Shown here piece after piece: positions 11,264-38,059 of a stretch of 42,060 nucleotides of DNA. The DNA comes from an uncultured Armatimonadia bacterium (lineage in GTDB: Bacteria; Armatimonadota; Zipacnadia; Zipacnadales; JABUFB01): the NCBI GenBank assembly GCA_964639415.1, contig CAZXDD010000002.1:1-42060 (forward strand), read 5' to 3'. How positions within the stretch are numbered: the first letter of the stretch is position 1; the number at the start of each line of letters is the position of its first letter. Under the pieces are notes generated by a model. That model saw only the letters and a program-made list of their open reading frames with translations, was not told the DNA's origin and did no database searches. The translations under genes and the position numbers were made by a program.

Positions 11264-11433
11264 CGGCCGAGAAGTCCGGCCGGTCCGTTTCATGTCATTC
11301 TGAGCGTCCCTCTCGCGCAGCTAGATAGCGAGGAACCTCGCTGAATGCCCGGAGATTCCTCGAGATGCTCCCTCCGGGAGCGGACGCTCTGGCTATGACA
11401 TCCCCGGCGAATGCGGGGTATTGGGCCGCACCT
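11264..11433 (+). repeat. Dispersed ~175-bp element, copy 1 (hairpin + 106-bp core with terminal inverted repeats + 34-nt tail)
   Basis: The core 11294-11399 (GTCATTCTGAGCGTCC...GGACGCTCTGGCTATGAC) aligns without gaps to the reverse complement of 37095-37200 at 79/106 positions (hand count). The flanking hairpin 11264-11282 (CGGCCG-AGAAGTC-CGGCCG) and the tail 11400-11433 (24/34 identical, ending GGCCGCACCT) are also shared with the second copy. Confidence 0.7.
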
Positions 11434-20927: not shown

Positions 20928-22180
20928 CGGCCCTCACCTCCGCCGGCAAGCCGGTCACGGAGGTAGGCCTCAGCGCGCGGCACCAGCTCCCGCAGGGCGT
21001 CGGGTGCGGCGCCAAACCCGTCCTCCGAGCGTCGGAGTTCCTCGGGTAGCTTGCCCAGCAATTCCGCCACAACGGGGCTCGCGGCCAGCTCCGCCAGATC
21101 CGCATCGGTCAGGCCACAGGCGAACAGCGTCTCGAGCAACGAAGGATCGCCTACACCCGCTGAAGTCGTCTCAGCCGCCGCAGGCACGACCACCTGAAGC
21201 TTCTCCAGCCACAGGCGACCGGCGCCGACGTCATTGGCGCGGCTGCGCAGCTCATTGAGCCAGTGCTCCGGTGAGGCCACCATCCGCTCGCAGGCCCGGG
21301 AGCGCCCCGTCACCACCACCCTCGTGGCCAGCACCGGGGCCGCGACATCGTCCAGGAGCTCCTGCCATCGCGTGACGATAGCATCGGCGACGTCCTCGGG
21401 ATCGGAGCAACCTTCGCCACCGACCCGGCACTCCTCCCACCTCACCACATCCAGCTCCCGCTCTTCCACCGTGGCCTCACCGTCTTCCACCGTCACCAGC
21501 GTACAGCCCTTGGGACCCGTCTCGCGGATGTGCCGCCCCTGCAGATTGCCGGGGAAGACGACCCAGGGGTCCTCGCACAGCACCTCGCGCTGGTGGATGT
21601 GCCCCAGAGCCCAGTACTGGTACCCGCGGTCCTCCAGATGCTCCAGCGTGCACGGTGCGTACGGATCGTGACCCGGTCGCCCGTTGACACTGGTATGCAG
21701 AAGCCCGATGTTGTACACCCCCGGAAACGGAGCGGGGTACAGCAGCGCCAGATTCTCCTCGACATGCCTCCTGCCGAAGCTCATGCCGTGCACGGCCAAC
21801 CCCAGTTCGCGGAACTCGACGCTTTCGGGCGCCTTGTCGCCGAACAGATGCACATTGTCCGGAGGCCGCAGGTACTTGGTGATCTGACTGACGGCGTCGT
21901 GGTTGCCGAAGATCACGGCGGCTTTGACCCCGTGCCTTTGCAGACGGCTCATCTGACCGGCGAAATGCAGCCCCGTGTTGTAATCCTGCCAGTCGCCGTC
22001 GTACAGGTCGCCGGCGAACAGTACCAGGTCCACAGCCCGCTCGATCGCGAGGTCCACGAGCTTCTCCAGAGCCACACGCGTGGCCCCACGCACCTCATCC
22101 AACGGTGCGCCTGAGTAGTCCTGTAGCCCACGCATGGGGCTGTCGAGGTGCACATCCGCGGCATGGATGAACCTGGGCAT
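20924..22180 (-). CDS. YhaO/SbcD-like metallophosphoesterase (DNA repair exonuclease family)
   Basis: Track ORF 20924..22300 trimmed to ATG 22180, with GGAG upstream. The protein then starts MPRFIHAADVHLDS, as SbcD/Mre11-type proteins do. Calcineurin-like motifs are present: DVHLD, GDLYDGD, GNHD and GHIH. Confidence 0.85.
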   Translation of the reverse strand: MPRFIHAADVHLDSPMRGLQDYSGAPLDEVRGATRVALEKLVDLAIERAVDLVLFAGDLYDGDWQDYNTGLHFAGQMSRLQRHGVKAAVIFGNHDAVSQITKYLRPPDNVHLFGDKAPESVEFRELGLAVHGMSFGRRHVEENLALLYPAPFPGVYNIGLLHTSVNGRPGHDPYAPCTLEHLEDRGYQYWALGHIHQREVLCEDPWVVFPGNLQGRHIRETGPKGCTLVTVEDGEATVEERELDVVRWEECRVGGEGCSDPEDVADAIVTRWQELLDDVAAPVLATRVVVTGRSRACERMVASPEHWLNELRSRANDVGAGRLWLEKLQVVVPAAAETTSAGVGDPSLLETLFACGLTDADLAELAASPVVAELLGKLPEELRRSEDGFGAAPDALRELVPRAEAYLRDRLAGGGEGR

Positions 22181-22210
22181 ACGAATCTCCGGGGGGGAGT
22201 CTGCGAGTCG

Positions 22211-22270
22211 CGAGTCAACGAAGACGGCAACGGCGTCAACGGCGACGGCGTCAACACCAACGGCGTCAAC
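22211..22270 (-). repeat. Short tandem repeat GTTGACGCCG (15-bp period, 3 copies plus a fourth GTTGAC) upstream of the YhaO-like gene
   Basis: On the plus strand, CGGCGTCAAC occurs at 22231, 22246 and 22261, plus GTCAAC at 22214. On the coding strand these read GTTGAC(GCCG), each containing a -35-like TTGAC. No matching -10 element was found. Confidence 0.5.
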
Positions 22271-22318
22271 AGCAGCGGTCGCGCAGGGCGGGCGCGCCAA
22301 CGGCGAGTGACACGAGCT

Positions 22319-25300
22319 CTATCGGGGCCAGCGTAGCTCTGTCAGGTCCCGCAGGCGGTCCCGGGCATCCGTTCCGTCACCCGCCCAGAGGAGGGCCACA
22401 TGGCCGCCCGACGCCGGGAGCATCACCCGCCAGAGCCCCTCCGCTCCCGCCGGCGAGAGCGGCGAGCCCACGCCCTGCGTCCCCGGTCTGCCCACCCACA
22501 GATGCTCTTTCACCGCGAATGCACGAGAGCTGAGGCTCACCTGTGCACACTGGTGCGGCAAGACCATGAGGCTCTCGCTCTGCCGCACGTCCTCGCCATC
22601 CATCGCGCAGAGGGCATAGTGCCCGTCGGCGGTGGCGAGCAGCTCGCCGCCGATCCGAACGGCGCCCTGGCTCTCAATGGCGCGAACCGCGCCGTCGGGC
22701 CCCAGGAGCACGAAAGCAAAGCCCCTCTCCGCCAGGGAGACGGTGGCGTCGGCGGCGGGCAGGGTCACGGCCAGCGGACCGGTGCCCTCCTCGCGCCGGG
22801 CCAGCATGTAGAGTCGGCCACCGTCGGCAGTGGGGATGCTCAAGGCCCGGACCGCGGCCTGCGCGGGTTCCACGGCGATGGGCCGGATGTAGGCCATCTC
22901 CAGGACGCGGGCGTAGAGGGCCCCGTCCTGGGGCCGCCCGCGCAGCTCCATGGGATACGGCGCGTACAGCACCTTGCCGGCGCCGACCGCGGTCTCAACC
23001 GGCACCTGCTCCCAGGCCTCTCTCGACACATCGAAGGGCGGCACTGCCGGCGCCTCGGGTAGCCCCAGCTCCACACGCCGCTGCCCCCGAGTCGGCCTGC
23101 GGGTGGCGTCGAAGCTGATGTCGCCCGAGAGATAGAGCGTCCCGCCGGCCCGGGTCCAGGTGAGGATCGCGTCGAAGGTCTCGTCGGTGGGGCAGTAGGG
23201 CACCGGCCAGTACAGCACCTTTGCCGAAGCGGGCAGGGCCCCGATATCCTCCTCGTTCACCATCCCGAAGTTCACACGCTGCTCCAGCAGCAGGTCGATG
23301 GCGCGCAGCACCGCGCCATTGAGCTCGTTGAACCGCGGCCCGATCCGGTGCCTGTCCGGAGCGACGACAAACACCTCCGGCGATTCGTAGACCGGCTCCG
23401 CGAGCTTGAGCAGCAACCCGCCCTGCGCCAGCGTGTGCAGCCAAGGCTTGGGCGTGTTGGAGCAATGGCGCATCAGCCCCCACGGGAAGACGCATTCGTC
23501 AAAGTCCTTCCAGTCCCAGTTGGCCATGACGGCGGCGCCCATGCCGGCGGCATAATGACCGTAGGTCTGGAAGCGGTGGATCGAGGCCTGCACCGGCTCG
23601 CCAAAGGCCCCATTCACCCGGGCGTCGTGGGCCTCCTGGGCCCCGAACTCCCCCACCGAGAATCCCTTGCCCACGAACCGCCGGTCGACAAGCTTGACGC
23701 CCGAGGCGAAGCCGTCGACCCCGCCGTAGTAGTGCATATTGGAGAAATCCGTGTGCCGAACGCCGAGGATCTTGTCCGCCGGCGGCATACTGGGCAGGTA
23801 CCCTACGCAGATCGGGGCGTCCGGATCGCCTCTGCGCAGGCCGTCCACATTCGCCTTCACCCACCGGTTCAGTAGCTCCGTCTCGAACCGCTTCAGATCG
23901 GCGGCCCGCACGTCGTCCCAGTCATTGCTCCCCTTGCCCAGCGGCACGTCGGGAAGTGGCGCCTCCGGTGGCTGCTTGCTCCACGCCTCACGGAGCGCTT
24001 CGTCGGTGGCGTAGCGCTCCGTGAGGAACTCGTTCCACAGCGCCACCACATCCGGCCGGTCCTCCACACTCACCGAGGGCTCGTTTTGCACATCGTAGAA
24101 GATCCCCGGAACATCCCGGTACCTGCCGGCCCAGAAGGCGTTCCAGTCCGCCTGCGCCGCCAGCTCCTCCTCGGTCAGTACCGTTCCCATCCAGTCGTGA
24201 ACGGTGAGGAAGATCGCGACCCTGTGCTTCTGGGCCAGTTGCACGATGGCATCCATCTGCCGCACCAGCCGTTCCGGGCGCTCGCGCAGGTCCAGTGGCT
24301 GATTGGTGGGCCTGCCCTCGTAGCCGCCCTTGGAGTACGGGGAGAAGTGGAGGGTTCGCAGGATATGCACGCTGTTTTGGGCCATGTGGGCCAAATCGCG
24401 GTCCCAGATCGCCGGGTTCTCGTTGTCGGAGAAGTACATCATCCCCGTCTGGTTGGTACCCATCAGGAAGGTCGGCCGCCCGTCCACGGTGAGGTAGTTG
24501 TCCTTCCATGCCACGACCGGCCCCGAGGCGAGCACCTCCGGACTGCGAATGCACAAGGCCGACCGCATCACATCGGCCCGTCGCTCTCCCTCGCTGAGCA
24601 CGGCCTCTATCGGGCAGTAGTCGGCCTCCAGAACGTCCACAGCGACGCCCACCGTGACGGTCTCTGTGCTTCGCGGTGGCAGGTCCAGGGCCCGGGACAA
24701 CACCTCGTTCCCCGCGACGCGAAGCGAGATCCTGCGACTCGCGGGGCGACGGCCGTTGTTGGACACACGTACCGATATTCCCGCCGTCTCTCCCGGCTCG
24801 TAGCAGGCGAAATCGGTCTTCAGCTCGTGCAGGAAGACCTTCTCACAGATATCCGCGACGACCCGGGCCAGCAGCTTGCGCCGCGACTCCGCCCCGAGAA
24901 ACAAGTCTGTGCCGTCGGTCAGGCCACTGAAGGCCCAGCTTGACCCTGAATAGTGGCCCGAGTAGTTGTGCAGGATGCTCAGAGCGGTTCCCTGCAGCGT
25001 TCCTTCGGCGGAGTAACCCTCCAAGACGGGTACCCAGCGCCGGTAGACCGCGGGAAACACGGCGCTGTTGACCCCGGTCAGACCGCAGGAGGAAAAGCCC
25101 GACACCGGCCGGTCGAAGGTGTACTCCAGGGCCGTGAGCGCGGGGTCGTCGACCCAGACGGCGGGCCGCAGAGATGTCGTGTGCTCCAGACTGGAAGAGG
25201 GATCAAAGACCCCTATCTGGTGAGGCTCGAGCACCATCTGGTCGCCGGGCTTGCCCGTCCGGGTGTTGATCCGGCCAAGATCGGGCTCGGTCCTGGGTTC

Positions 25301-26248
25301 ATCCATCTCCGCGGCCGTGAGCTCGGGCCCGCTCGTCCCCGCCCAGCCGTCCTCGGTCAGCGCCAGCGGCGAGTCGAAGGCGTAGCCGTCGGTGGAGAGG
25401 AAGCCGCCGCCGGCCTGCAGGTAGCTCAGGAACGTCTCCCCGGCGTCCTGCGGGAAGTACGGCCCGAAAGGCAGGATCACCGCGTCGAGGCGATCCGGTG
25501 TCATCACCTCCGCCCGGGCCAGGTCGCCGGCCTTGAGCACGGTGACCCCGAACCCCTCGGCGCGCAGTGCAACCGCCAGGTCGGCCGGCGCATGCGCCGT
25601 CGCGAAGTCGTTGGGCAGGCCTTCGCCCATATCAAGGACGCCCACCGTCCCCCGCTCTCCGGGCTCGATCTCCAGATCGGCCGTCACCGGCAGCGCCACG
25701 GGCTTCTGGGACTCCCCCACCTCCCACGCCATCTTGTCCACCGTGACCTCGAGGTCCGCGAAGTTGCATCCGATGAGCATGTGGTCGACGGTCAGCATCT
25801 CGCGAGTGCCCTGACCACGACCGTCGAAGCGGAAGCCCGACACCGGAAGCCTGGCTTCGTGCCACCCCACGGGGGCCTCGGCGAGGTCCTTGCCGTCGAG
25901 GTGCACCCGTTGCACCCAGGCATCGCCGTCCGCCTCGAACAGCCAGATGTGCATGGCGGCCCCCGGTGCCGCGGAGTGCTTGTGCACCCAGAAGCGCAGG
26001 GCCCGGGCCCCGGCGGGGATACTGCACGGAGCGCTGATGTTCCCCCAGTTCGGCGTGCTGTCGGAGTAGTCCAGACGCATGCCGGTGCCCTCACGGGCGT
26101 GTTCGGTGTCGGCAGACACCTGCGGCGGGTTGCCGCCGTCCAGGTTCGGACGCCACACGGAGACGTCCTCGAAGTCGTGCAGTGGGACCTCGACGGCCAT
26201 GGCGGCCACTCCCAACATGATCAGAAGCAGTAGGTGCAGTGACGACAT
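22319..26248 (-). CDS. Large secreted glycoside hydrolase-like protein (clan GH-A TIM barrel, GH5/GH42-like, with beta-sandwich and amidotransferase-like modules)
   Basis: 1309 aa; ATG 26248 has GGAGG 7 nt upstream. The signal peptide is MSSLHLLLLIMLGVAAMA. The central region (TFLMGTNQTG...VHILRTLHF...IFYDVQNEPS) carries an NEP acid/base-like motif. The module LDAVILPFGPYFPQDAGETFLSYLQAGGGF resembles the N-terminal module of the divergent neighbour 26380..28260. Confidence 0.75.
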   Translation of the reverse strand: MSSLHLLLLIMLGVAAMAVEVPLHDFEDVSVWRPNLDGGNPPQVSADTEHAREGTGMRLDYSDSTPNWGNISAPCSIPAGARALRFWVHKHSAAPGAAMHIWLFEADGDAWVQRVHLDGKDLAEAPVGWHEARLPVSGFRFDGRGQGTREMLTVDHMLIGCNFADLEVTVDKMAWEVGESQKPVALPVTADLEIEPGERGTVGVLDMGEGLPNDFATAHAPADLAVALRAEGFGVTVLKAGDLARAEVMTPDRLDAVILPFGPYFPQDAGETFLSYLQAGGGFLSTDGYAFDSPLALTEDGWAGTSGPELTAAEMDEPRTEPDLGRINTRTGKPGDQMVLEPHQIGVFDPSSSLEHTTSLRPAVWVDDPALTALEYTFDRPVSGFSSCGLTGVNSAVFPAVYRRWVPVLEGYSAEGTLQGTALSILHNYSGHYSGSSWAFSGLTDGTDLFLGAESRRKLLARVVADICEKVFLHELKTDFACYEPGETAGISVRVSNNGRRPASRRISLRVAGNEVLSRALDLPPRSTETVTVGVAVDVLEADYCPIEAVLSEGERRADVMRSALCIRSPEVLASGPVVAWKDNYLTVDGRPTFLMGTNQTGMMYFSDNENPAIWDRDLAHMAQNSVHILRTLHFSPYSKGGYEGRPTNQPLDLRERPERLVRQMDAIVQLAQKHRVAIFLTVHDWMGTVLTEEELAAQADWNAFWAGRYRDVPGIFYDVQNEPSVSVEDRPDVVALWNEFLTERYATDEALREAWSKQPPEAPLPDVPLGKGSNDWDDVRAADLKRFETELLNRWVKANVDGLRRGDPDAPICVGYLPSMPPADKILGVRHTDFSNMHYYGGVDGFASGVKLVDRRFVGKGFSVGEFGAQEAHDARVNGAFGEPVQASIHRFQTYGHYAAGMGAAVMANWDWKDFDECVFPWGLMRHCSNTPKPWLHTLAQGGLLLKLAEPVYESPEVFVVAPDRHRIGPRFNELNGAVLRAIDLLLEQRVNFGMVNEEDIGALPASAKVLYWPVPYCPTDETFDAILTWTRAGGTLYLSGDISFDATRRPTRGQRRVELGLPEAPAVPPFDVSREAWEQVPVETAVGAGKVLYAPYPMELRGRPQDGALYARVLEMAYIRPIAVEPAQAAVRALSIPTADGGRLYMLARREEGTGPLAVTLPAADATVSLAERGFAFVLLGPDGAVRAIESQGAVRIGGELLATADGHYALCAMDGEDVRQSESLMVLPHQCAQVSLSSRAFAVKEHLWVGRPGTQGVGSPLSPAGAEGLWRVMLPASGGHVALLWAGDGTDARDRLRDLTELRWPR

Positions 26249-26379
26249 GGAAAGACCTCCAGCCCGGAGATTGGTGCACCATTTCGCCGCTCCGTGCCCA
26301 AAGGCCTCCGTGAACGCTGCGGCGAAGGAGTCGCCTAGATCGGGAATCCGAAGCCATCGGACACAGGGAGTTGCGATAC

Positions 26380-28260
26380 ATGCTGACCCGCCTGCTGTGG
26401 GCGCTTGCGACGTCCTTGGGAGCCACCGCGCTGTCGGCCGCGCCCCTCGCCGTCTACCAGTCCGAGGCCAACTTCGCCGAGTACCAGGGCGTCCACCAGC
26501 AGGCCCTGCGGCAGTGGCTTTCCGACCGGGGACAGGCCTTCGCTGTCATCGGTGACGCACAGGCCGCGGATGTGGCGCGGCTTGCCCCCTATCCGCTGGT
26601 GCTGGCCTCCAGCTCCTACATCGTCCCGCCCGGGGCGATGCGTGGCTTGTCCGCCTACGTGCAGGCCGGAGGGCAGGTGCTCTGGTTCGACTCGCCGGCC
26701 CGCGTCGGAGATCCGGAGTTTCGTAGCCTGCTGGGCCTCGGCACTCAGACCACCTATCTGACCTCCACGGACTGCAGGCTGCGCAGCACTGCGGCCACCC
26801 ACCCCCTGGCGTCCACGCCACAGGAGCTATCGCCGGCGTCCTTCGTGGGCAACTGCGCCACCTCGGCGGCCGAGGGCGCCCTGGTGCTGTATGAGGCCGT
26901 GGTCACACCCACCGGAGGCGGGGAACAGAGGCTCCCCGCGGTCGTGTTGGCCAAGAGCGGAAGCGGGGTGTGCGTTACCTTCAACTGGCTGCCCTGGCTC
27001 TCGCCCAGTGATGGACTCCGGGACCTCCTGAGCCAGTCGCTGGACTACCTCCTCGCCCGTTGGGAGCTGCAGCAGACCGACCTCGTTGCCCGTTGCCGGA
27101 CGGGACGTGTCGACATCCGCCAGCCCGAGCCTGTGCAGGTCACCTGCGCGGTCTTCGCTCGGCGCGCGGCAGCAGACACTCCCGCCACGGCCGGCCTGCG
27201 GCTCGCCGACGCCGATGGCAGACCGATCGGCCAACCACTGCACGTTGAGGCCCAATGGCAGGCGAGTGACGACGAGCTCAGCCACGCCCGCCTCTCGGCG
27301 CAGGTGCCCACCGCAGGCCTTGCCGATGGCCACTACACCGTGAGCGCCGAGGTTCATCTGGGCGCGAGCACCCGCACCGCCTCGGCGCCGGTGCGATTGT
27401 CCGGGCAACAGTGGGCCAGGCTCCAGGACGAGAACAGGCAGCGCCGGGAACTGCTGAGGCCGCTGCTTGTGGGCGCCCTCGGTGACTACGACGCCGAGCC
27501 CCGCACCGCTGAGGGTCGCGTCGACCTCCCCCGGCTGCTGCGGCAGATCGAGACGGCCCACATGAACATGTACGACTTCCTCATCTGGCATGCGGCCACC
27601 GACTGGGAGGACTTCCAGGCCTTTCTTCCCATGGCGCAGGAGAAGAGTCTCAAGGTCTGGGTGACGCTCTGTCCGCCCAGCGAGCAGGGCGGCAACTGGC
27701 CCTACTCGGAGCCCTATCGCCTGGACTTCGTCAAGTGGGCCGAGGAGATCGGCGCTCTTGCCGACCAATACCCGTGTCTCGTCGCCATGGTGATCGACGA
27801 CTTCTGGTCCGGAGACAACCGCCTGCTGTACACCCCGGAGTACATCGCACGCATGGTGGCGACCCTCCGCGCGCAGTGTCCCACGGTGGCGTTCCTGCCC
27901 ACGATCTACAAGTCCACCGTGGGCGATGCCGAGTGGGTGCGCAACTACGGACCGTACATCGACGGTATCGTGTTCCCCTACGAGGAGCTGCAGACGGGTG
28001 AGCACCTTCGGGAGCAGCTCGCGGCATGCCGAGACTGGCTGGGCCCCGACAAGCTGATCTTCGTGAACATCTACGCCAGCGGCTCATCGGGCCCGCAGGA
28101 GCCCGGCCCACGGACCGAGGCCTACATGCGGCAGACCCTCACGCTCTCACGAGAGCTGGCCGACGGTATCCGCATCTACTGCCTCCCCAAGGGGACCCTG
28201 CTTGAGGATCACCGGTACCGCGTCACGGCAGAGCTGTACGGCGAGTGGAGCGGGGAGTGA
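26380..28260 (+). CDS. Secreted hypothetical protein with amidotransferase-like N-terminal module and TIM-barrel-like C-terminal part
   Basis: The track ORF starts at TTG 26371; I prefer ATG 26380, which has AGGGAG 9 nt upstream. The signal peptide is MLTRLLWALATSLGATALSAAP. The N-terminal module is YPLVLASSSYIVPPGAMRGLSAYVQAGGQVLWF. The C-terminal part includes KVWVTLCPPSE...VAMVIDDFW. Confidence 0.7.
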   Translation: MLTRLLWALATSLGATALSAAPLAVYQSEANFAEYQGVHQQALRQWLSDRGQAFAVIGDAQAADVARLAPYPLVLASSSYIVPPGAMRGLSAYVQAGGQVLWFDSPARVGDPEFRSLLGLGTQTTYLTSTDCRLRSTAATHPLASTPQELSPASFVGNCATSAAEGALVLYEAVVTPTGGGEQRLPAVVLAKSGSGVCVTFNWLPWLSPSDGLRDLLSQSLDYLLARWELQQTDLVARCRTGRVDIRQPEPVQVTCAVFARRAAADTPATAGLRLADADGRPIGQPLHVEAQWQASDDELSHARLSAQVPTAGLADGHYTVSAEVHLGASTRTASAPVRLSGQQWARLQDENRQRRELLRPLLVGALGDYDAEPRTAEGRVDLPRLLRQIETAHMNMYDFLIWHAATDWEDFQAFLPMAQEKSLKVWVTLCPPSEQGGNWPYSEPYRLDFVKWAEEIGALADQYPCLVAMVIDDFWSGDNRLLYTPEYIARMVATLRAQCPTVAFLPTIYKSTVGDAEWVRNYGPYIDGIVFPYEELQTGEHLREQLAACRDWLGPDKLIFVNIYASGSSGPQEPGPRTEAYMRQTLTLSRELADGIRIYCLPKGTLLEDHRYRVTAELYGEWSGE

Positions 28261-30957: not shown

Positions 30958-32229
30958 ATGAGCAGCGCAGCGAAGCCGGCTCTCACCGGTGGCACCCCCG
31001 CGGTAAGCCTCTCACACAGCCCCTGGCCGATCACCGGTGAGCAGGAAGTGCAGTGGATGGAGGAGGTCGTCCGCGGTGGCAAGTGGAGCTGGCTGGGGCC
31101 GCACGAGGAGGCCTTCTGCCGGGAGTTCGCTGCTTTCATCGGCAGCGAGTACGCCCTCGGGCTGTCCAACGGCACCGTGACCATCCAGTGCGCGCTCCAG
31201 GCCGCGGGCGTCGAGCCGGGCGACGAGGTGATCGTCCCGGGGCTGACCTGGGTCGCCACGGCCCAGGCGGCCCTGGACATCGGCGCCCACGTCGTCCTCG
31301 TCGACATCGACCCGGAGACCTATTGCATCGACCCGCAGGCCCTGGAGGCCGCGATCACCCCCAGGACCCGGGCCGTCGTCCCGGTTCACCTCTACGGCTG
31401 CATGTGCGACATGGACGCCGTCACCGAGATCGCCGGTCGCCACGGGCTGAAGATCGTCGAGGACGTGGCACACCAGCACGGGAGCCGCTGGCGCGATCGA
31501 GGCGCCGGGGCCATCGGCGATGCAGGCAGCTTCTCCTTCCAGCAGAGCAAAGTCCTCACCAGCGGGGAGGGCGGGGCCATCACCTGCAACGACGAGGAGA
31601 TCTACAACATCGCCTTCAGCCTCAAACAGGTGGGCTGGTCTCCTCAGATGCAGCCGGCCGGCCACTACGGCCACAACTATCGCATCACGGAGATGCAGTG
31701 CGTCTTGCTTCGCGGCGGACTGACCCGCATCGAAGAGCAGACGGCCATCCGCGAGCAAAGTGCCCTGGCACTCAGCGAGGGCCTCGCGCGCATCGGCGGG
31801 CCGCTGCGCGCCGCCGGGCGCGACCCGCGCGTCACCCGTCAGGCCTACTACGCCATGACCCTGCACTTCGACCCGGCTCTGGCCGAGGGCCTCACGCGGA
31901 GCCAGTACTTCGCCGCACTCGCCGCGGAGGGCCTGGGGCTGGGCGCCCCGTATGCGCCGGTCTATCGCAATGGCCTGCTCAATCTCTACGACAGGACCAG
32001 CCCGGTGCCCTATCGCGACTCGGCGGCGGTGCAGGACTATGCGAACCTCAAGCTGCCGGTGGTGGAGCGCGTCTGCGACCAGACCGGAGTGGTCTTGATG
32101 CACAACCACCTTCTCGCCGAGCCGGCGTACATCGACCAATTGGTGCAGGCCGTGGACAAGGTGAACGGGAGCCTGGCACAGATAGGCCGCCACCTTGCCG
32201 CGACGGAGGCGGCGGCCACGACGACCTGA
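30958..32229 (+). CDS. DegT/DnrJ/EryC1/StrS family PLP-dependent aminotransferase
   Basis: Track ORF 30895 (TTG) trimmed to ATG 30958, preceded by GGGGAGG. Family motifs are present: GDEVIVPGLTWVAT, IVEDVAHQHG and the PLP-lysine context SFSFQQSKVLTSGEGGAI. Confidence 0.9.
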   Translation: MSSAAKPALTGGTPAVSLSHSPWPITGEQEVQWMEEVVRGGKWSWLGPHEEAFCREFAAFIGSEYALGLSNGTVTIQCALQAAGVEPGDEVIVPGLTWVATAQAALDIGAHVVLVDIDPETYCIDPQALEAAITPRTRAVVPVHLYGCMCDMDAVTEIAGRHGLKIVEDVAHQHGSRWRDRGAGAIGDAGSFSFQQSKVLTSGEGGAITCNDEEIYNIAFSLKQVGWSPQMQPAGHYGHNYRITEMQCVLLRGGLTRIEEQTAIREQSALALSEGLARIGGPLRAAGRDPRVTRQAYYAMTLHFDPALAEGLTRSQYFAALAAEGLGLGAPYAPVYRNGLLNLYDRTSPVPYRDSAAVQDYANLKLPVVERVCDQTGVVLMHNHLLAEPAYIDQLVQAVDKVNGSLAQIGRHLAATEAAATTT

Positions 32230-32283
32230 CCCCGCCGACGCCGTCGGGCGGCAGGCGCCCACAGCAGCATCGAACGGGCAGAC

Positions 32284-32322
32284 ACAGGCGGCCTACCGCG
32301 TTTCCCGCGGCAGGCCGCCTGT
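32284..32322. terminator. 17-bp-stem hairpin (one mismatch) in a convergent intergenic region
   Basis: ACAGGCGGCCTACCGCG-TTTCC-CGCGGCAGGCCGCCTGT lies between the aminotransferase stop (32229) and the stop of the minus-strand gene at 32346. There is no U-tract on either strand. Confidence 0.5.
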
Positions 32323-32345
32323 GCTATCGCTATGAGCCACGCCGT

Positions 32346-33026
32346 CTACGAGCCGTCACCCCAGCGCCACCACAGCGTCGATCCGGAACGCGACTTCCCC
32401 GTCCGCCCACCATCGAGACCCTCCGTGTCGGCCTCCTCGGAGCCCTTCGACGCCCCGGCCCGGTTCTCGAGTATCACGGCCGCCCCTACCCGTGGCCCCT
32501 CGCCGCTGGCCACATCACGCTCCGGCCCAATACCGTCGGGATCTCTCTCGACGAAGCCGATGCTCCCGTCGAGAAAGACGCAGTATGTCCAGCCATGATG
32601 ACGCGGTACCGGCCGCCCCTGTGGGTCGGCGTCATAGAACAACATGCACGCATCCGGCTCGGGATGCTCGTCGATCCGCGTGCCACCGTACCGCGAGTTC
32701 AGGGCGTACGAGATGCTGTCTTCGCTCTTGTCTTCAGGGCACCTGAGAGCGTCCTCGTGGCCGAGGTAGTCGCCCGCCAGCAGCCGGGGCCAGGAGTGAG
32801 AAGCCGGGAGCGTCTCGTCGTAGTCGGCGGCGTAGGTTCGGGCCGCCATCTTGATCGCCAGCAGATTGCCCACGCACAGGTCCTGCCGATAGCCCGGACG
32901 CGTCCGGAACAGAGGCATCACAATCCAGCCCCCCACCACGATGACCATCCCGAGCACCAGCAGGTCTCGTCGCACATCCTGCCACAGTGATGTCCGACGA
33001 GACCGGCGCTGTCTCACCACGACCAT
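32346..33026 (-). CDS. Membrane-anchored H-X9-DG (DUF1559-type, prepilin-like) protein, paralogue 5 of the sigma-linked cluster
   Basis: ATG 33026 has a GAGGTGA RBS. A basic head and TM helix (RRDLLVLGMVIVVGGWIVMPLF) are followed by CVGNLLAIKMAARTYAADYDETLP, RCPEDK, ISYALN and RHHGWTYCVFLDGS (H-X9-DG). It has an acidic, Gly-rich C-terminal tail and no canonical G/FTLIE prepilin motif. Confidence 0.7.
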   Translation of the reverse strand: MVVVRQRRSRRTSLWQDVRRDLLVLGMVIVVGGWIVMPLFRTRPGYRQDLCVGNLLAIKMAARTYAADYDETLPASHSWPRLLAGDYLGHEDALRCPEDKSEDSISYALNSRYGGTRIDEHPEPDACMLFYDADPQGRPVPRHHGWTYCVFLDGSIGFVERDPDGIGPERDVASGEGPRVGAAVILENRAGASKGSEEADTEGLDGGRTGKSRSGSTLWWRWGDGS

Positions 33027-33030
33027 GCCT

Positions 33031-33931
33031 TCACCTCACACCTGCTATCGGCCGCTGCCTGGCCGGCCGCCACTCCGTCATCTCCGGCAGTCCTGCGACC
33101 GCCCTCACCTGCCCGCCCATGTAGGCACACACACCACGTCCATCGTTGCGCGGGTCCGTCGACCTCATCGTCTCCGCGTCCCCTGTGCACCGGCGGCGGC
33201 AAGCGAACCGCCGTCCCCGGAGATGGCCCCTCGATGGGCACCCGACCCCTTTCGGGCCAGGCCTCGCCGGGGATCTGCTTGGCTCTCCCTCGCAGACGCG
33301 CCCGGTGGGCGCCGGGCGGCTTGTGACGGAGCCTCGCGAGATTTGCACGTTCCTGTTATTGTACAGGTGGCTGCGGCCGACGTCCACCGCCTCGGACTTG
33401 GCGGCGCGCCACCCACTCGGGCTCGGCGGAGGCACCGAGAGTGTCGGTGACCTTCACGCGGCACGCGCCCGGAAGACGTCTCATCGCAGACCGCGGCCCA
33501 CAGCTCCACGAGCAAGACAAGACTGACCCGCTGCAAGATCGCCTTCTCAGCCCACATCACAGGCGGCCGGTCCCGCCGCCCCCACAGATGCACACGTACC
33601 GCGTAGGCTGTCTTGAGCTTATCAGAAACATGATACCCATTATTGGGCCGATTCACACCACTTGACGGCTCAACCTTCTCGAAAGAGTCGTTGAGCCACA
33701 TCAATTAGCCGTGCGACAGGGAGTGCCTGCGGTCGCGCCCTCGCGGCCGCGCCTGTGAGGCGTCCTGCGCGTGACGATGAGCTCCACATCGTCCGGCCAC
33801 GGACCGACTTGTGGCGGTCGATCGGTGCGGCCTCCTGTATGAACCACGGCAGCTATGGCGATCTGCTTGAGGTTGCACATGCAACTTGACTGTCTCGCCT
33901 GCTCACGGCTTCCACCGAACACGAGAGCCAT
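33031..33931 (-). pseudogene. Decayed H-X9-DG paralogue (paralogue 4), split into out-of-frame fragments and interrupted
   Basis: The N-terminal fragment is 33701..33931 (LVFGGSREQARQSSCMCNLKQIAIAAVV). The C-terminal fragment lies in the frame of ORF 33031..33435 (GCPSRGH...TDPRNDGRGVCAYMGGQVRAV), and there the H and D of H-X9-DG are replaced. No continuous ORF and no convincing TM helix remain. Confidence 0.45.
33440..33704 (-). mobile_element. Possible remnant of an IS200/IS605-type (Y1 HUH) transposase N-terminus with adjacent hairpin
   Basis: The segment 33590-33704 is visibly AT-richer than its surroundings. Its translation is MWLNDSFEKVEPSSGVNRPNNGYHVSDKLKTAYAVRVHLWGRRDRPPVMWAEKAILQRV. 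The string Y-x-x-R-x-H-L-W..R-x-R-x-x-V-M resembles the conserved N-terminal strand of TnpA(Y1). The hairpin GGCTCAAC-N15-GTTGAGCC lies at 33667-33697. The similarity is short and unverified. Confidence 0.25.
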
Positions 33932-34208
33932 CGAGCCGGTCGGTAAAGCCCCGTACCCGGAGCCGCGAAGCTCACGGGCGTCGCCGATCCACGGCGATAG
34001 CCGGTCGTCTGCGGTTGGACAGCGTGGTTTGTGCCCTGTGGTCGGTGGCAGACTCGTCGAGGCGGTGGCCCACCGCCACGGCAGTCGCCGGGGCCATCCG
34101 CAGCGGGGGGCACCTTCCAGCAGAGGAGGGGCCTGAGCAATGGCGGGCTCGACTCGAGGAATCCCGCGGCCCGAAGCGAGGTGATCCGTTACAGCATGAC
34201 CTTGAGCG

Positions 34209-34915
34209 TCATGCGGCCGCTTTCAGTCTGGCCCGGCGCCTAACCGCCCTGATCCCCGCCCACAGCGGCGGTATCCACAGCCAGCAGTAGACGGCCATGG
34301 TGCGGACGACCCGCAGGAGCGCTCTACCCGCACCTTCCGCGGTGGTGACGATTGTGTCCCACACCCCCGGGGGAACGCGGGGCTCGGGGACTGCCGGAGC
34401 CCCATCAAGCTTCGGGACGCCCGGGAACCACTTGACATGACCGTCGAGGTAGGCGCAGTGACAGCCGCCATTGTGCCGGGCCACCGGTCCCCCGGCGCCG
34501 TCGGCGTCGACGAAGAGCACCCGTTCCGCGGCCCGGGGGTACCGCCGATTCTCCGCCCGCTGTAGCGTGAGGCCATCGCGTACGAGACCGCGGCGCCACT
34601 GTGGTCCTTCTCACACCCGTACAGCGCCCTGTCACGCACGTACGGCAGTAGCTGCCGCGGCCACCGCGCGGCGTCAGGCAGCCTCCCATCGTTGTCCTCG
34701 GCGTACATCAGCGCCGCGAGCACAATCTGCTTGATGTTCGCAAAACAGCGTGGGTTGAGTTGAGGATGAGGCTTGGCCCATACGGGAAACAGCAGGGCGC
34801 CCGCCAGCATCGAGAAGAGAAGCGCGGCCGCCATCTCGATGAGACCGGCTTTGAGCGCCGCCGCTGCGTCCGCGGCCACCGGTGTTCGCTCCCCGGGCTC
34901 ACCGAATTGTCTCAT
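34209..34915 (-). pseudogene. H-X9-DG paralogue 3, closest copy of the anti-sigma ectodomain, split by a 1-nt frameshift
   Basis: The N-terminal part lies in ORF 34223..34915 (KAGLIEMAAALLFSMLAGALLFPVWAK...NDGRLPDAARWPRQL...AVSYAMASRYSGRRIGGTP). The C-terminal part lies in ORF 34209..34520 (ERVLFVDADGAGGPVARHNGGCHCAYLDGHVKWFPGVP...). The frames switch in the run CCCGGGGG at 34532-34539. An AGGAGG RBS lies 10 nt upstream of ATG 34915. Confidence 0.65.
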
Positions 34916-34933
34916 GTCGTGGGCGGCCTCCTG

Positions 34934-35488
34934 CTACCCGCTTCTGGGCCCCGCTGCGTTCCCGGCCACTCCCCTGGTGGTCTTCACATGCCCGTCCATG
35001 TAGGCGCAGTTGATGCGCCCTCTGTGGCGCGGAGCCGGACACCCCTGCGCGTCGGCATCGTAGAACAGGACGCGAGCATATGGGTCGGAATAGTCGCTCA
35101 GACGCGTTCCGCTATAGCGCGGGTCCATGGCGTAGGATATGGGAGAGCGAGACTTGTCCGCCGGACACTTGAGCATGTCCTGTGACACCCCGTAGGCGGA
35201 GAGCTGCTGCGGCCAGCTCCGGCTGTCGGGGAGCACGCCGCCGTTGGCCGCGGCATAGGCCACAGCGGCGCCGACTATCACCTTCAGGTGCTCCCGACAC
35301 TCCTGTTCCGCGCCCGCGCTCCCGGCGCGGGCACGGATCGGTGCCGAGGCGGTTGCGATGATGCCCCCAAGAACCACCAGGACTGCCCCGACAGCGATCC
35401 CGATCACAAGCACAGCGGTCCCGCATCCCCTGGCTTTGACGTCCTTCCGGGCACCTGCTCGCTGCGGCCGTTGTGGCGTAGCCATCAC
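34934..35488 (-). CDS. Membrane-anchored H-X9-DG (DUF1559-type) protein, paralogue 2
   Basis: The start is GTG 35488 or ATG 35485; AGGAGG lies 7 or 10 nt upstream respectively. A basic head and TM helix (GTAVLVIGIAVGAVLVVLGGIIA) are followed by ECREHLKVIVGAAVAYAAANGGVLP, KCPADK, ISYAMDPRYSG and RVLFYDADAQGCPAPRHRGRINCAYMDGHVK (H-X9-DG). Confidence 0.75.
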   Translation of the reverse strand: MMATPQRPQRAGARKDVKARGCGTAVLVIGIAVGAVLVVLGGIIATASAPIRARAGSAGAEQECREHLKVIVGAAVAYAAANGGVLPDSRSWPQQLSAYGVSQDMLKCPADKSRSPISYAMDPRYSGTRLSDYSDPYARVLFYDADAQGCPAPRHRGRINCAYMDGHVKTTRGVAGNAAGPRSG

Positions 35489-35642
35489 AGTGGGCCCTCC
35501 TGCCTATGCTGAGTGCGTGGCGGCGGGAGGAGGAAACCCGCACAGGCAACGGCGGCCAGCGCAGTCCCCGGCTCGGAGCCCCAGACTCTCCCACCGACGC
35601 TCATCTTGTCGATTGGGGCGGGGGCATCGTCAAGACCCGGGA

Positions 35643-36437
35643 CTAATCAGGGGATATCGAGTCGCCCGCGGGGCCGATGCCCCGGGGCACGCCATTCAGC
35701 CATTTCACGTGACCGTCGAGGAAGGCGCAGTTGGTCCCGCCGTTGTGGCGGGCTATCGGCCGCCCGCTCCTGTCCACATCGAGGAACAGGACGCGCTCGG
35801 CCCTGTCCGGGAAGGCCAGGGGGTCTTCGCGGCCATAGGTCCGGTCCATGCCATAGGAGACGTCCGCGCCGCCGCCATCGGCCGGGCACCGGTACAGCAT
35901 CCGGTTCTTGACGAAGGGCTCCAACTGCCCGGGCCAGCGGGCGGCGTCCGGCAGCCTGTCGCCGTTCTCAGTGGCATAGATCAGCGCGGCGGTCACAATC
36001 TGCCTGAGATTCGACGCGCAACCGGCTTGCCTGGCCTTCTCACTGCTTCTGGCGAAGACGGGGAACAGGATAGCGCCGAGGACCACGACAACAAACAGCA
36101 GTATCAGGGCCTCCACAATGCTGAAGCGAAGCAGGGCGGTTCCACCGGGCCGGGCGATCACGGTCCCCAGAGGCAGTTGCCTCTGAGGTCTCTCGGGCGT
36201 GGGCATCGCGGCTATCTCTTCTTCGACACGGCCGGACAGATCCTTCCCCTGCGCCGAGGCGAGCGACGCCCGGCGAAACACCTCCCCGTCGGTCTTGCTC
36301 TGCCGCAGCCACTCACGACATCGGGCGCAGTCCTGCAGGTGGCGGCGCACAGCGGCCCGTTCCTGCCCACCGCATTCCCCATCCGCGTAGGCCGAGAGCA
36401 AGAGCAGCCACTCCTCGTCGTGGTGCAGGCGGCCCAT
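35643..36437 (-). CDS. Anti-sigma factor (zf-HC2) fused through a pilin-like transmembrane helix to an H-X9-DG (DUF1559-type) ectodomain
   Basis: Track ORF 35643..36521 trimmed to ATG 36437, which shares its A with the sigma-gene TGA (TGATG). The N-terminus (MGRLHHDEEWLLLLSAYADGEC...RRHLQDCARCREWL) is a zf-HC2 anti-sigma domain. Residues 104-140 are RFSIVEALILLFVVVVLGAILFPVFARSSEKARQAGC. The C-terminus has YRCPAD, VSYGMD and RVLFLDVDRSGRPIARHNGGTNCAFLDGHVKW. Confidence 0.8.
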   Translation of the reverse strand: MGRLHHDEEWLLLLSAYADGECGGQERAAVRRHLQDCARCREWLRQSKTDGEVFRRASLASAQGKDLSGRVEEEIAAMPTPERPQRQLPLGTVIARPGGTALLRFSIVEALILLFVVVVLGAILFPVFARSSEKARQAGCASNLRQIVTAALIYATENGDRLPDAARWPGQLEPFVKNRMLYRCPADGGGADVSYGMDRTYGREDPLAFPDRAERVLFLDVDRSGRPIARHNGGTNCAFLDGHVKWLNGVPRGIGPAGDSISPD

Positions 36438-36991
36438 CAGCGCCCTCCCCCCTCGGCCACAGCATCCGCCTCGTCCTCGGCCTGGAGGATTCCGCGCAAT
36501 GCCTGGCGTGCTCGGAAGCACCTTACCCGCACGGTGCCCGCGGCGACGCCGAGCATCGTGGCGATCTGCTCGTAGCTCATGTCCATCAAGTATCTCGCGG
36601 CCAGTATCTCGCGATCGTCCTGGCGCAGGCGGTCCAGTAGTGGGGTCAAGTCCGATGCCGCGGGGTCGACGGGTCCAGTAGACGGCTCGGGCACGGAGTC
36701 CGCCTCCAGAGACAGCGCCCGCGGGGGCCGGCGCGACAGATACCGGCGACAGCGGATGCGGAGGATGCCGTAGAGCCAGCCGCCGAACCTCTCCGGGTCC
36801 TGCAGGTTCCCCAGCCCTCGGTAGGCTTCAATGAAGCTCTCCTGAGCCACATCCAAAGCGGCCTCGTCCTCGCCCACAAGGTGCCGGGCAGCGGCGATGA
36901 TCCGCCCCTGGTGGCGGCGCACCAGCTCGGAGAAGGCGTGCTTGTCGCCCTGGAGTGTCCGACCCACCAGGTGGGCGTCGCCACCGGCCAC
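36437..36991 (-). CDS. ECF-type RNA polymerase sigma-70 family factor
   Basis: 184 aa; GTG start with GGAGG 7 nt upstream. Region 2 is FSELVRRHQGRIIAAARHLVGEDEAALDVAQESFIEAYRGL. The region 4 HTH is REILAARYLMDMSYEQIATMLGVAAGTVRVRCFRARQAL. Confidence 0.9.
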   Translation of the reverse strand: MAGGDAHLVGRTLQGDKHAFSELVRRHQGRIIAAARHLVGEDEAALDVAQESFIEAYRGLGNLQDPERFGGWLYGILRIRCRRYLSRRPPRALSLEADSVPEPSTGPVDPAASDLTPLLDRLRQDDREILAARYLMDMSYEQIATMLGVAAGTVRVRCFRARQALRGILQAEDEADAVAEGGGR

Positions 36992-37060
36992 GTTGTTGCC
37001 TCCGCGCGGGGATCGCGTCCTGGGTGTATGTGCCTTGCTCTGGGGACGATGTTACGCCAC

Positions 37061-37237
37061 AGGTGCGGCCGCAAAGGCCGCCTTCGCCGAGTGTGTCATC
37101 CTGAGAGCGCCCGCTCCCGCAGGAAGCAGCTCGAACAACCTCCTGGAATATCGCGACAGCCTTCGCCATCCCGCTGCGCGAGATGGACGCTCAGGATCAC
37201 ATCCTCACGGCGGGCCCGGCTTCTCGGCCGGGCCCGC
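37061..37237 (-). repeat. Dispersed ~175-bp element, copy 2 (opposite orientation to copy 1), between response-regulator stop and sigma-factor start
   Basis: The reverse complement of 37095-37200 matches 11294-11399 at 79/106 positions. The tail 37061-37094 matches 11400-11433 at 24/34 positions. The terminal 11-bp-stem hairpin GCGGGCCCGGC-TTCTCG-GCCGGGCCCGC at 37210-37237 corresponds to the copy-1 hairpin and may also terminate the response-regulator transcript. Confidence 0.7.
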
Positions 37238-37336
37238 GGAAGGTGATGCATCGCGGCGAGACCCCCGCGAGCCGGGAACGTCGGCGGCCGCTGAGGGCGC
37301 GTCAGGCCCTGCGATAGGGAACGTGGTTCGGGGCGG

Positions 37337-38059
37337 CTAACCGTCGGCGGCGGCGGCCGTGGAGGAGGGGTCCAGGCGATAGCCCAGGCCCTTCACCGTG
37401 ACCACAAGCGAGGGCCGCGAGGGGTTGGGCTCGATCTTGTGGCGCAGATTGGAGATGTGCACCTGCACCGCGTGGGTTGCCCTGTCATCCGGCCACAGGG
37501 CCTCCAGCAGCGCCTCCTTGGAGAACACCCAGCCGGGGTGCTCCGCCAGGAAGGTGAGCAGCCGAAGCTCCGTGGCGCTGAGAAGCACTTCCCGTCCATC
37601 GATGGAGGCCACGCAGCGGGCGCGGTCGATGGCGACGCGCCCCACCCGCAGGACATCGGACTGCTCCGGCTGTCCGCGGCGGAGAACCGCGCGCACGCGG
37701 GCCAGAAGCTCGTTGAGATGGAACGGCTTGCGCACGTAGTCCTCGGCGCCGGCCTCCAGAGCCGTCTCCGCCGCATTGGCGTCGTCCACCGCGGTGATCA
37801 CCATCACGCGCGGCCCGCGCAGGGCCACGAGCTGACGGCACACCGAGAGCCCGTCCAGGTCCGGGAGGCCCAGGTCGACCAGGCACAGCGCGGGGCTTTC
37901 CTCGCGGGCCAGCGCCAGCCCCTGAGCGCCGGTGCGTGTCGCCTGCGCACGGTAACCGGCGTCCTCCAGGGCCCCGGCGACCACATCGCCCAGCGCCCGA
38001 TCATCCTCGATGATGAGGATGTCGATGCCCGCCTTGTCTTCCCGCGAACCGCCGGCCAT
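37337..38059 (-). CDS. OmpR/PhoB-family response regulator (orphan, no adjacent histidine kinase)
   Basis: Track ORF 37337..38410 trimmed to ATG 38059 (MAGGSREDKAGIDILIIEDD). The receiver domain has DD, the phospho-acceptor context CLVDLGLPDLDG, and Lys in DYVRKPF. The C-terminal winged helix is LSATELRLLTFLAEHPGWVFSKEALLEALW...VQVHISNLRHKI...VKGLGYRL. Confidence 0.9.
   Translation of the reverse strand: MAGGSREDKAGIDILIIEDDRALGDVVAGALEDAGYRAQATRTGAQGLALAREESPALCLVDLGLPDLDGLSVCRQLVALRGPRVMVITAVDDANAAETALEAGAEDYVRKPFHLNELLARVRAVLRRGQPEQSDVLRVGRVAIDRARCVASIDGREVLLSATELRLLTFLAEHPGWVFSKEALLEALWPDDRATHAVQVHISNLRHKIEPNPSRPSLVVTVKGLGYRLDPSSTAAAADG

Follow-up and report, generated by a model that had tools for sequence, protein, structure and literature searches.

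A predicted ECF sigma/anti-sigma pair with a pilin-like membrane helix and an H-X9-DG ectodomain, followed by tandem copies of that domain, in an uncultured Armatimonadia bacterium

We analyzed a 42,060-nucleotide stretch of DNA from an uncultured Armatimonadia bacterium (NCBI GenBank assembly GCA_964639415.1, contig CAZXDD010000002.1, positions 1 to 42,060; hereafter the window) that contains a minus-strand block of six units at 32346..36991: a gene for a predicted extracytoplasmic function (ECF) sigma factor, a gene for its putative anti-sigma factor, and four units (P1, P2, P3, and P4) related to the H-X9-DG ectodomain with which the anti-sigma factor ends. An earlier note on this DNA had read six co-directional units from the letters, and re-checking returned the same open reading frames (ORFs) and coordinates. 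The coupling that it had proposed was also found, with the sigma TGA and the anti-sigma ATG having the A at 36437 in common within TGATG (36435..36439). The features considered here are as follows.

37030..37055, minus strand: candidate promoter for autoregulation by the ECF sigma factor, GTAAC-N18-CAC, lying 64 nt ahead of the sigma start codon, proposed from motif conservation
36437..36991, minus strand: ECF sigma factor gene, 184 amino acids, assigned from the profile matches given below
35643..36437, minus strand: anti-sigma factor gene, 264 amino acids, encoding a zf-HC2 domain, a linker, a pilin-derived transmembrane helix, and an H-X9-DG ectodomain
36315..36416, minus strand: zf-HC2 motif region of the anti-sigma factor, residues 8-41, H33-x3-C37-x2-C40, Pfam PF13490 at 6.4e-11
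36033..36125, minus strand: pilin alpha1-like transmembrane helix of the anti-sigma factor, residues 105-135, with R-1, F+1, E+5, and ILFPVFA
35712..35747, minus strand: H-X9-DG motif of the anti-sigma ectodomain, H231 to D241-G242, matched by TIGR04294
34934..35488, minus strand: P1, with an N-terminal basic head, one transmembrane anchor, and an H-X9-DG ectodomain, lacking the prepilin motif and Glu+5
34209..34915, minus strand: P2, with a pilin-like transmembrane helix (LIE kept), an H-X9-DG ectodomain, and a C-terminal transmembrane helix with an RRRARLK tail
33031..33931, minus strand: P3, a decayed copy, of which an N-terminal remnant, SREQARQSSCMCNLKQIA, and possibly a C-terminal one, NDGRGVCAYMGG, are left
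32346..33026, minus strand: P4, with a basic head, one transmembrane anchor, an H-X9-DG ectodomain (HHGWTYCVFLDG), and an acidic, Gly-rich tail
32284..32323, no strand assigned: inverted repeat, rich in GC, that separates P4 from the convergent DegT gene, read from the sequence, a possible bidirectional terminator

The sigma, zf-HC2, and H-X9-DG assignments of the earlier note were borne out by hidden Markov model (HMM) searches, each of which gave matches passing the cut-offs. The sigma factor gene begins with GTG at 36991, 7 nt downstream of a GGAGG, and its product matched Sigma70_r2 (3.9e-13, residues 23-88), Sigma70_r4_2 (1.3e-13, residues 118-165), and the ECF superfamily model TIGR02937 (81 bits against a cut-off of 42.9). 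Its small size and its possession of sigma2 and sigma4 only, without sigma3 or sigma1.1, are those of an ECF (group 4) sigma factor, and every match to the NCBIfam equivalog models fell below the model's own cut-off. The adjoining gene, which overlaps it by 1 nt, encodes a protein with the N-terminal domain and H-x3-C-x2-C motif of the class I, or zf-HC2, anti-sigma factors. The motif reads HLQDCARC, and its H33, C37, and C40 are at least 90% conserved among 28 representatives of the fusion family described below.

The outer half of the anti-sigma factor was matched by the H-X9-DG model TIGR04294 (29.9 bits against a cut-off of 19, residues 229-248), and among the fusion relatives D241 is invariant and H231 and G242 are nearly so. 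Two other models did less well: SBP_bac_10/DUF1559 (PF07596) reached 21.3 bits, below its 23.3 cut-off, and covered only positions 5-28 of 268, and the prepilin model N_methyl (PF07963) gave no match to this protein. Homology to DUF1559 is nevertheless clear from phmmer matches to PF07596 proteins at 1e-22. An AlphaFold2 model of the full-length protein (predicted local distance difference test, pLDDT, 88; outer part alone, pLDDT 91.6 and predicted template-modeling score, pTM, 0.83) consists of four N-terminal helices (residues 8-77), a disordered segment (78-106), one helix (107-157), and a small four-stranded domain. The topology is the one implied by the basic heads, in which the zf-HC2 head is predicted to be cytoplasmic and the H-X9-DG globular domain extracytoplasmic.

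The single transmembrane helix between these two halves resembles the alpha1 helix of type IV pilins. Residues 105-160 gave weak NCBIfam matches to ComGC, PilA, and GspG, and a profile of the family found the alpha1 helices of pilins and of GspG with solved structures (1e-14 to 1e-6). An FP-F...EKAR-Q-C motif is almost invariant among the fusion relatives. Both a hydrophobic alpha1 helix with Glu+5 and an alpha-beta globular domain are present, with a whole-fold Foldseek match that is marginal; the pilin claim thus rests on sequence profiles rather than on fold matching. The motif starts at about residue 105 with Arg at -1, while pilins have a short leader at the N-terminus with Gly-1 as its last residue. 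Cleavage of class III signal peptides depends above all on this glycine, which among the 28 fusion representatives occurs in only 6, with Arg in 8 (the window protein included), whereas Glu+5 (E109 in the window protein) is kept in 23. Because the cleavage glycine is mostly lost and Glu+5 mostly kept, we conclude that the helix is pilin-derived and is predicted to serve as an uncleaved membrane anchor. The earlier note's comparison with a type IV pilin helix therefore holds for its origin and fails at the cleavage site, where the glycine has been replaced by arginine.

The same arrangement recurs in other genomes. The 264-residue anti-sigma protein was found at 99% identity on 12 contigs from several samples, with the gene order unchanged. 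Two Armatimonadia metagenome-assembled genome contigs (L001 and L002), whose anti-sigma factors are 77% identical to that of the window, keep the order sigma, anti-sigma, P1, P2, P3 remnant, P4, DegT, AraC, so that the neighborhood is conserved in relatives, as the earlier note had required of its proposal. All genes compared with L002 are under purifying selection, with ratios of nonsynonymous to synonymous substitution rates (dN/dS) of 0.13-0.56 and 0.095 for DegT; the values were 0.13 for the sigma gene, 0.5 for the anti-sigma gene (0.56 for its outer part), 0.46 for P1, 0.32 for the intact alleles of P2, and 0.23 for P4.

To place the protein in a wider family, a profile search was run against 1.84 billion representative proteins, with clusters defined at 50% identity. 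At least 28 full-length fusion clusters, apparently from Armatimonadota, topped the ranking, and the search as a whole matched 194,392 representative proteins (E up to 0.001), for the most part by way of the query's H-X9-DG half. Among the 28 fusion representatives, Pfam recognized SBP_bac_10 in 26 (E up to 0.01) and DUF4349 and zf-HC2 in 25 each. Proteins 40-48% identical to the window protein share its head, helix, and H-X9-DG domain, and the gene for each is overlapped on its upstream side by an ECF sigma gene; overlap or adjacency of the sigma and anti-sigma genes was seen in L001, L002, L005, L006, L008-L013, L078, and the P0121 contig. The possibility, raised in the earlier note, that the fusion ORF would resolve into two genes in relatives did not materialize: it is unbroken in L001, L002, the 40-48%-identical proteins, and at least 28 clusters. 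Its suggestion that no system of this architecture had been described stands for the literature searched, in which we found none; the architecture itself is that of a modest family and is not unique to this locus.

The common, long form of the fusion has 460-570 residues and runs from zf-HC2 through the pilin-like transmembrane helix and H-X9-DG to DUF4349 and a C-terminal transmembrane helix with an Arg-rich tail. In the window the protein is of a short form, which stops just past H-X9-DG and lacks DUF4349 and the C-terminal transmembrane helix. P2 ends in an anchor with a weak resemblance to the C-terminal anchor of the long form, and together with the short form of the sensor this makes the array look like a truncation and tandem duplication of the long-form outer part; the short form would then have been derived from a longer ancestor by these two steps. 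Compared with long-form relatives such as P0121, L008, and L013, with which it shares the type of sigma partner, the promoter motif described below, the head, the helix, and H-X9-DG at 40-48% identity, the window protein is without DUF4349 and without a second anchor, and tandem paralogues come after it. A separate variant, L012 4327..5466, has a zf-HC2 head, a pilin-like helix (RRFVEAF...LFPVFSRSKAKA), and DUF4349, and lacks the globular H-X9-DG; from its sequence it may be an intermediate or a deletion form. Proteins recovered in the database searches (P0138, P0146, P0008, P0250, P0050, and P0014) place the H-X9-DG module in still other settings, namely secreted tandem repeats that have no pilin or hydrophobic helix, the C-termini of multi-pass membrane proteins, a peptidase M48 fusion, and a zinc-ribbon/DUF4190 fusion. 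Its occurrence without a pilin helix and in such varied fusions favors an autonomous binding domain and suggests that H-X9-DG is a promiscuous extracytoplasmic module.

The paralogy of the four downstream units was confirmed in two ways. A family HMM, built in this analysis and run on the whole window, matched P1 (1e-35), P4 (1e-34), the two frames of P2 (2e-20 and 1e-11), and the N-terminal remnant of P3 (2e-7), and its matches were confined to these and the anti-sigma gene. By BLASTP, the anti-sigma ectodomain was 51-53% identical to P2, 39% to P1, and 37% to P4 (6e-28 for P4), and the exact H-X9-DG motif is present in the anti-sigma factor, P1, P2, and P4. P1 barely exceeded the TIGR04294 cut-off (19.3 bits against 19) and is conserved in L001, L002, and L072-L077; on the basis of the gene calls in near-identical contigs, its true start is probably the ATG at 35485 (183 amino acids). 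P4 had no match in Pfam or NCBIfam, TIGR04294 included, though its motif is exact. The anchors of P1 and P4 are plain and have neither Glu+5 nor FPVFA, whereas P2 keeps LIE and FPV (TIGR04294, 30.7 bits). In the window, P2 is interrupted by a 1-nt deletion near 34542/34543, which recurs in one other assembly (L074). The gene is intact in L002 and in five of seven near-identical assemblies, these five being 99.5-99.9% identical; it is whole (235 amino acids) in L002, L076, and L077, and the missing base is present in L072, L073, and L075. A different deletion, of 4 nt and independent in origin, lies within a GGCC repeat in the P2 of L001. These differences may reflect either repeated inactivation of P2 in natural populations or assembly errors.

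P3 is more thoroughly decayed. It gave 21.6 bits with SBP_bac_10, the family HMM matched its N-terminal remnant only, and the HMM match of the C-terminal remnant NDGRGVCAYMGG was not significant. The corresponding sequence has an in-frame stop in L002 and a 350-bp insertion in both L001 and L002, and on this sequence evidence we regard P3 as an old pseudogene in all three lineages. An unusually AT-rich block at about 33600..33690 (minus strand) within the remnant (GTGAATCGGCCCAATAATGGGTATCATGTTTCTGATAAGCTCAAGACAGCC...) is near-identical in L002 despite an overall identity of about 86%; judged from its sequence, it could be a promoter or a small RNA. The region's only sigma-70-like site, at 33358..33386, is not far from it. 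Free anchored paralogues also adjoin the sigma/anti-sigma pair upstream in L013 and downstream in the P0121 contig, which shows that the association recurs.

We derived a candidate promoter motif, GTAAY-N18-CAC, from an alignment of the sequences that precede the sigma genes in divergent loci. It has a single match in the whole window (37030..37055), and each fusion locus, in eight lineages, has one match that always lies 60-107 nt upstream of the sigma gene. One of the eight is a held-out locus (L078), which was fetched after the motif had been defined and has it upstream of its sigma gene, and the background was three matches in 1.02 Mb from 58 unrelated, non-fusion loci. ECF promoters typically have an AAC-containing -35 element, and the conservation of a motif with an element of this type makes autoregulation the natural reading. 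No match was found upstream of P1, P2, or P4; looser searches were unconvincing and gave one loose match at 34192, downstream of P2. Since these paralogues lack a sigma-type motif of their own, they are most simply regarded as members of the operon, and the sequence suggests that the operon is autoregulated through GTAAC-N18-CAC with the paralogues included. The earlier note had offered the paralogues as a regulon, as decoys, or as partner subunits; a separate regulon is now less likely, and membership of the operon likelier. A scan for sigma-70 promoters and terminators found one weak promoter-like site (33358..33386, in the P3 remnant) and placed no terminator in any of the gaps between genes. 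The inverted repeat at 32284..32323 was not called by the terminator scan, for want of a T-run; it is possible from its sequence that it would end the operon. An Rfam search of 32000..37500 gave no credible family, and a weak match overlapping 32284..32323 was judged spurious.

Taking the sequence evidence together, we consider it rather probable that the locus is a self-activating ECF sigma/anti-sigma switch in which the anti-sigma factor senses a ligand or partner and is co-expressed with decoys or partners of its own outer domain. At rest, the zf-HC2 head would keep the sigma factor sequestered at the membrane. A cue from the envelope or from outside the cell, either a ligand or a protein partner, would act on the H-X9-DG domain; the neighboring genes make a relation to glycans possible. 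By way of proteolysis or a conformational change, the cue would free the sigma factor, which would then fire GTAAC-N18-CAC and so raise expression of the sigma factor, the anti-sigma factor, and, by read-through, P1, P2, and P4. The paralogues, which are ectodomains without the sigma-binding head, would once induced most likely take up the sensor's own ligand or partner, or else associate with the sensor itself, and this competition or pairing would provide feedback that tunes or damps the response.

Several points weigh against this switch. The signal, the mechanism of release, and the co-transcription are steps that we infer, and no gene for a site-1 or site-2 protease was found near the locus. 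The 154-nt gap ahead of P1 and the 1.2-kb P3 remnant ahead of P4 leave room in the sequence for other promoters, and in L001 and L002 a palindromic repeat lies between P2 and P4 that could insulate P4. The link to glycans, drawn from neighboring genes that vary, is weak. Foldseek searches of the Protein Data Bank with the full-length and ectodomain-only models gave no significant match (best E 0.038, template-modeling score 0.38), and the globular part is thus without a close solved relative; the top non-significant match was to gonococcal pilin, with RslA and RsiW among the best for the N-terminal head. Finally, Glu+5 and FPVFA are strongly kept in the anti-sigma helix and lost in P1, P4, and the L013 paralogue, a selective retention that hints, from sequence, at a role of the helix beyond anchoring.

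This last point leads to what we regard as the main rival to the switch, namely that the Glu+5/FPVFA helix mimics a pilin, residing among processed pilins or pseudopilins or docked on a type IV pilus or type II secretion platform, and that changes in the membrane pilin pool or in assembly free the sigma factor. Retention of Glu+5 in 23 of the 28 representatives when only 6 have the cleavage glycine, loss of Glu+5 and FPVFA from the free paralogues P1, P4, and L013_up, and homology of the helix to the solved pilin and GspG alpha1 helices are all in keeping with such mimicry, and PMC6058289, which cites PMC4889343, provides a precedent in PilS-PilR, which responds to the levels of PilA in the inner membrane. 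Retention of Glu+5 may, however, be mere ancestry, an uncleaved protein with a cytoplasmic head of 100 residues would be unable to enter a filament, and the globular H-X9-DG domain is conserved and also occurs in proteins that have no pilin helix. Pilus and secretion genes are, moreover, absent from the window and from the related loci examined. We consider this explanation unlikely. Direct control of the ECF sigma factor by pilus or secretion machinery, or by an H-X9-DG pseudopilin pool, through the alpha1 mimic (or, in the members with Gly-1, perhaps by prepilin peptidase) is to be viewed with the same doubt. If it were true, the helix would act as an assembly checkpoint for the huge DUF1559 pseudopilin repertoire, with a logic like that of FlgM and sigma-28, where export of FlgM couples flagellar assembly to the sigma factor. 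Another use of the pilin motif, in which prepilin peptidase cuts there and frees the sigma-bound head into the cytoplasm for degradation, is very improbable. Some relatives, such as P0128, P0132, and P0158, do keep a canonical G|F(T/R)L(I/V)E site, but position -1 is Arg in the window protein and in those closest to it, Gly is found in only 6 of 28, and N_methyl has no match; with the glycine lost at the position that determines cleavage, the sequence of this locus argues against cutting.

A further explanation locates the sensor in the cytoplasm, with the H-x3-C-x2-C zinc site of zf-HC2 acting as a redox switch as in RsrA or RslA and H-X9-DG only localizing or stabilizing the protein. The conservation of H33, C37, and C40, weak matches to RsrA (TIGR03988, 3.5e-5) and ChrR, and the presence of RslA and RsiW among the best structural matches of the N-terminal part are consistent with this proposal. 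In many membrane zf-HC2 anti-sigma factors the zinc is purely structural, however, and against the redox proposal stand the conservation of the ectodomain and transmembrane motif in relatives of 30-50% identity, with dN/dS below 1, and the copies of the ectodomain that repeatedly adjoin the module. On these grounds we judge it quite improbable. Frameshifts in P2 here and, independently, in L001, the pseudogene P3, and the metagenome-type assembly could also be read as signs that the locus is an artefact of assembly or annotation, a chance fusion followed by functionless DUF1559 remnants. That view is hardly credible: it is refuted by the recurrence of the locus on 12 contigs and of the fusion in dozens of divergent clusters, most assemblies have an undamaged P2, and dN/dS is 0.2-0.5 for P1, P2, and P4. 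We continue to favor the ligand- or partner-sensing switch.

Known systems resemble the locus in some respects and differ from it in others. The class I zf-HC2 pairs RsiW/SigW, RslA/SigL, and RseA/SigE likewise have a sigma gene followed by a coupled anti-sigma gene, a helical H-x3-C-x2-C head, a single transmembrane segment, a C-terminal part outside, and an operon that is probably autoregulated. The window differs from them in its H-X9-DG/DUF1559 outer module, in the use of a pilin alpha1 helix as the transmembrane segment, in the free copies of the outer domain downstream, and in having no identified protease partner. The canonical N_methyl plus SBP_bac_10 proteins of Planctomycetota and Armatimonadota share the FPVFA-R-EKAR-Q-C-SNLKQ helix, the conserved Cys and Pro residues, and the RHNGG-N-AF-DGHVKW end, and are 33-39% identical to the window protein over the outer half. 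In those proteins the pilin motif stands at the extreme N-terminus with Gly-1, which serves cleavage and methylation. In the window protein an anti-sigma domain precedes the motif, which begins some 105 residues from the N-terminus and has Arg at -1, and the globular part falls short of the 268 positions of the Pfam model. SigI/RsgI of the cellulolytic clostridia are modular anti-sigma systems in which outer binding domains report extracellular polymers and several paralogous units occur per genome. The window resembles them in the modular anti-sigma factor with outer binding domains and in the several paralogous units; the sigma family and anti-sigma fold are different, and the sensors there are recognized carbohydrate-binding modules, whereas a carbohydrate link here would come from neighboring genes only. 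In PilS-PilR, as described in PMC6058289, citing PMC4889343, a membrane pilin alpha1 helix is likewise part of a transcriptional circuit, but a histidine kinase reads a separate pilin, whereas the pilin-like helix of the window lies inside the regulator and has no linked pilus genes.

A literature search for DUF1559, SBP_bac_10, H-X9-DG, DUF4349, or prepilin domains tied to anti-sigma factors found no such link. The main text of the ECF classification paper mentions neither Armatimonadetes nor pilin-type anti-sigma factors, and H-X9-DG/DUF1559 domains go unmentioned in two ECF and anti-sigma classification papers. The DUF1559/H-X9-DG family has been described as expanded and uncharacterized in Planctomycetes (PMC8567305). 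As judged by sequence, the cytoplasmic half of the present system is an ordinary class I anti-sigma/ECF pair; the outer half belongs to the DUF1559/H-X9-DG superfamily and lacks the leader, cleavable and at the N-terminus, that defines pilins.

Beyond the sigma and anti-sigma genes, the neighbors are not conserved across the distant loci. In the window and the distant loci alike, many of them encode secreted proteins or proteins with a carbohydrate connection (a GH5-like protein, DUF4838, lectin-like proteins, CBM11, and CarboxypepD_reg proteins), and no pilus, secretion, or protease genes were linked to the module in the window or the distant loci examined. An OmpR-type response regulator gene (Response_reg plus Trans_reg_C; 37337..38059, minus strand) lies 345 nt upstream of the sigma gene in the same direction, with no adjoining histidine kinase; it is kept in the near-identical contigs and is not a member of the module in distant loci. 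Between it and the sigma promoter, at 37093..37200 (minus strand), lies one copy of a dispersed palindromic repeat of about 110-140 bp with the ends GTCATYCTGAGCG...CGCTCTCAGRATGAC. BLAST located a second copy at 11294..11433 of the window (plus strand, 74% identical) and a third at L001 4058..4132 and L002 3742..3816, where it is part of the insertion interrupting P3. The predicted fold of the repeat is a long branched hairpin (-56 kcal/mol, z -2.4). Rfam has nothing that matches it, and from its sequence it could be an element like the repetitive extragenic palindromic (REP) sequences or miniature inverted-repeat transposable elements (MITEs), an insulator, or a terminator. Elsewhere in the window, two ORFs (22319..26248, minus strand, 1309 amino acids, and 26371..28260, plus strand, 629 amino acids) have a coding-like GC content at third codon positions and no Pfam domain at E up to 0.001. 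At 17439..22300 (minus strand), a gene for a 1162-residue AAA_27/SMC_N-type ATPase adjoins a calcineurin-like phosphoesterase gene, and by sequence the two look like an SbcCD-like nuclease pair or a similar system.

DUF1559/H-X9-DG proteins are among the largest uncharacterized families in Planctomycetota, Armatimonadota, and their relatives, and to our knowledge no function has been assigned to them. A locus that ties the domain to a sigma factor with a recognizable promoter would offer a genetic read-out, in that a reporter should turn on whenever some condition, ligand, or partner acts on the domain. Another feature that the locus presents is a pilin alpha1 helix that appears to have been reused as a signaling membrane anchor; the head-less copies of the sensor, if co-expressed with it as proposed, may be a built-in feedback device.

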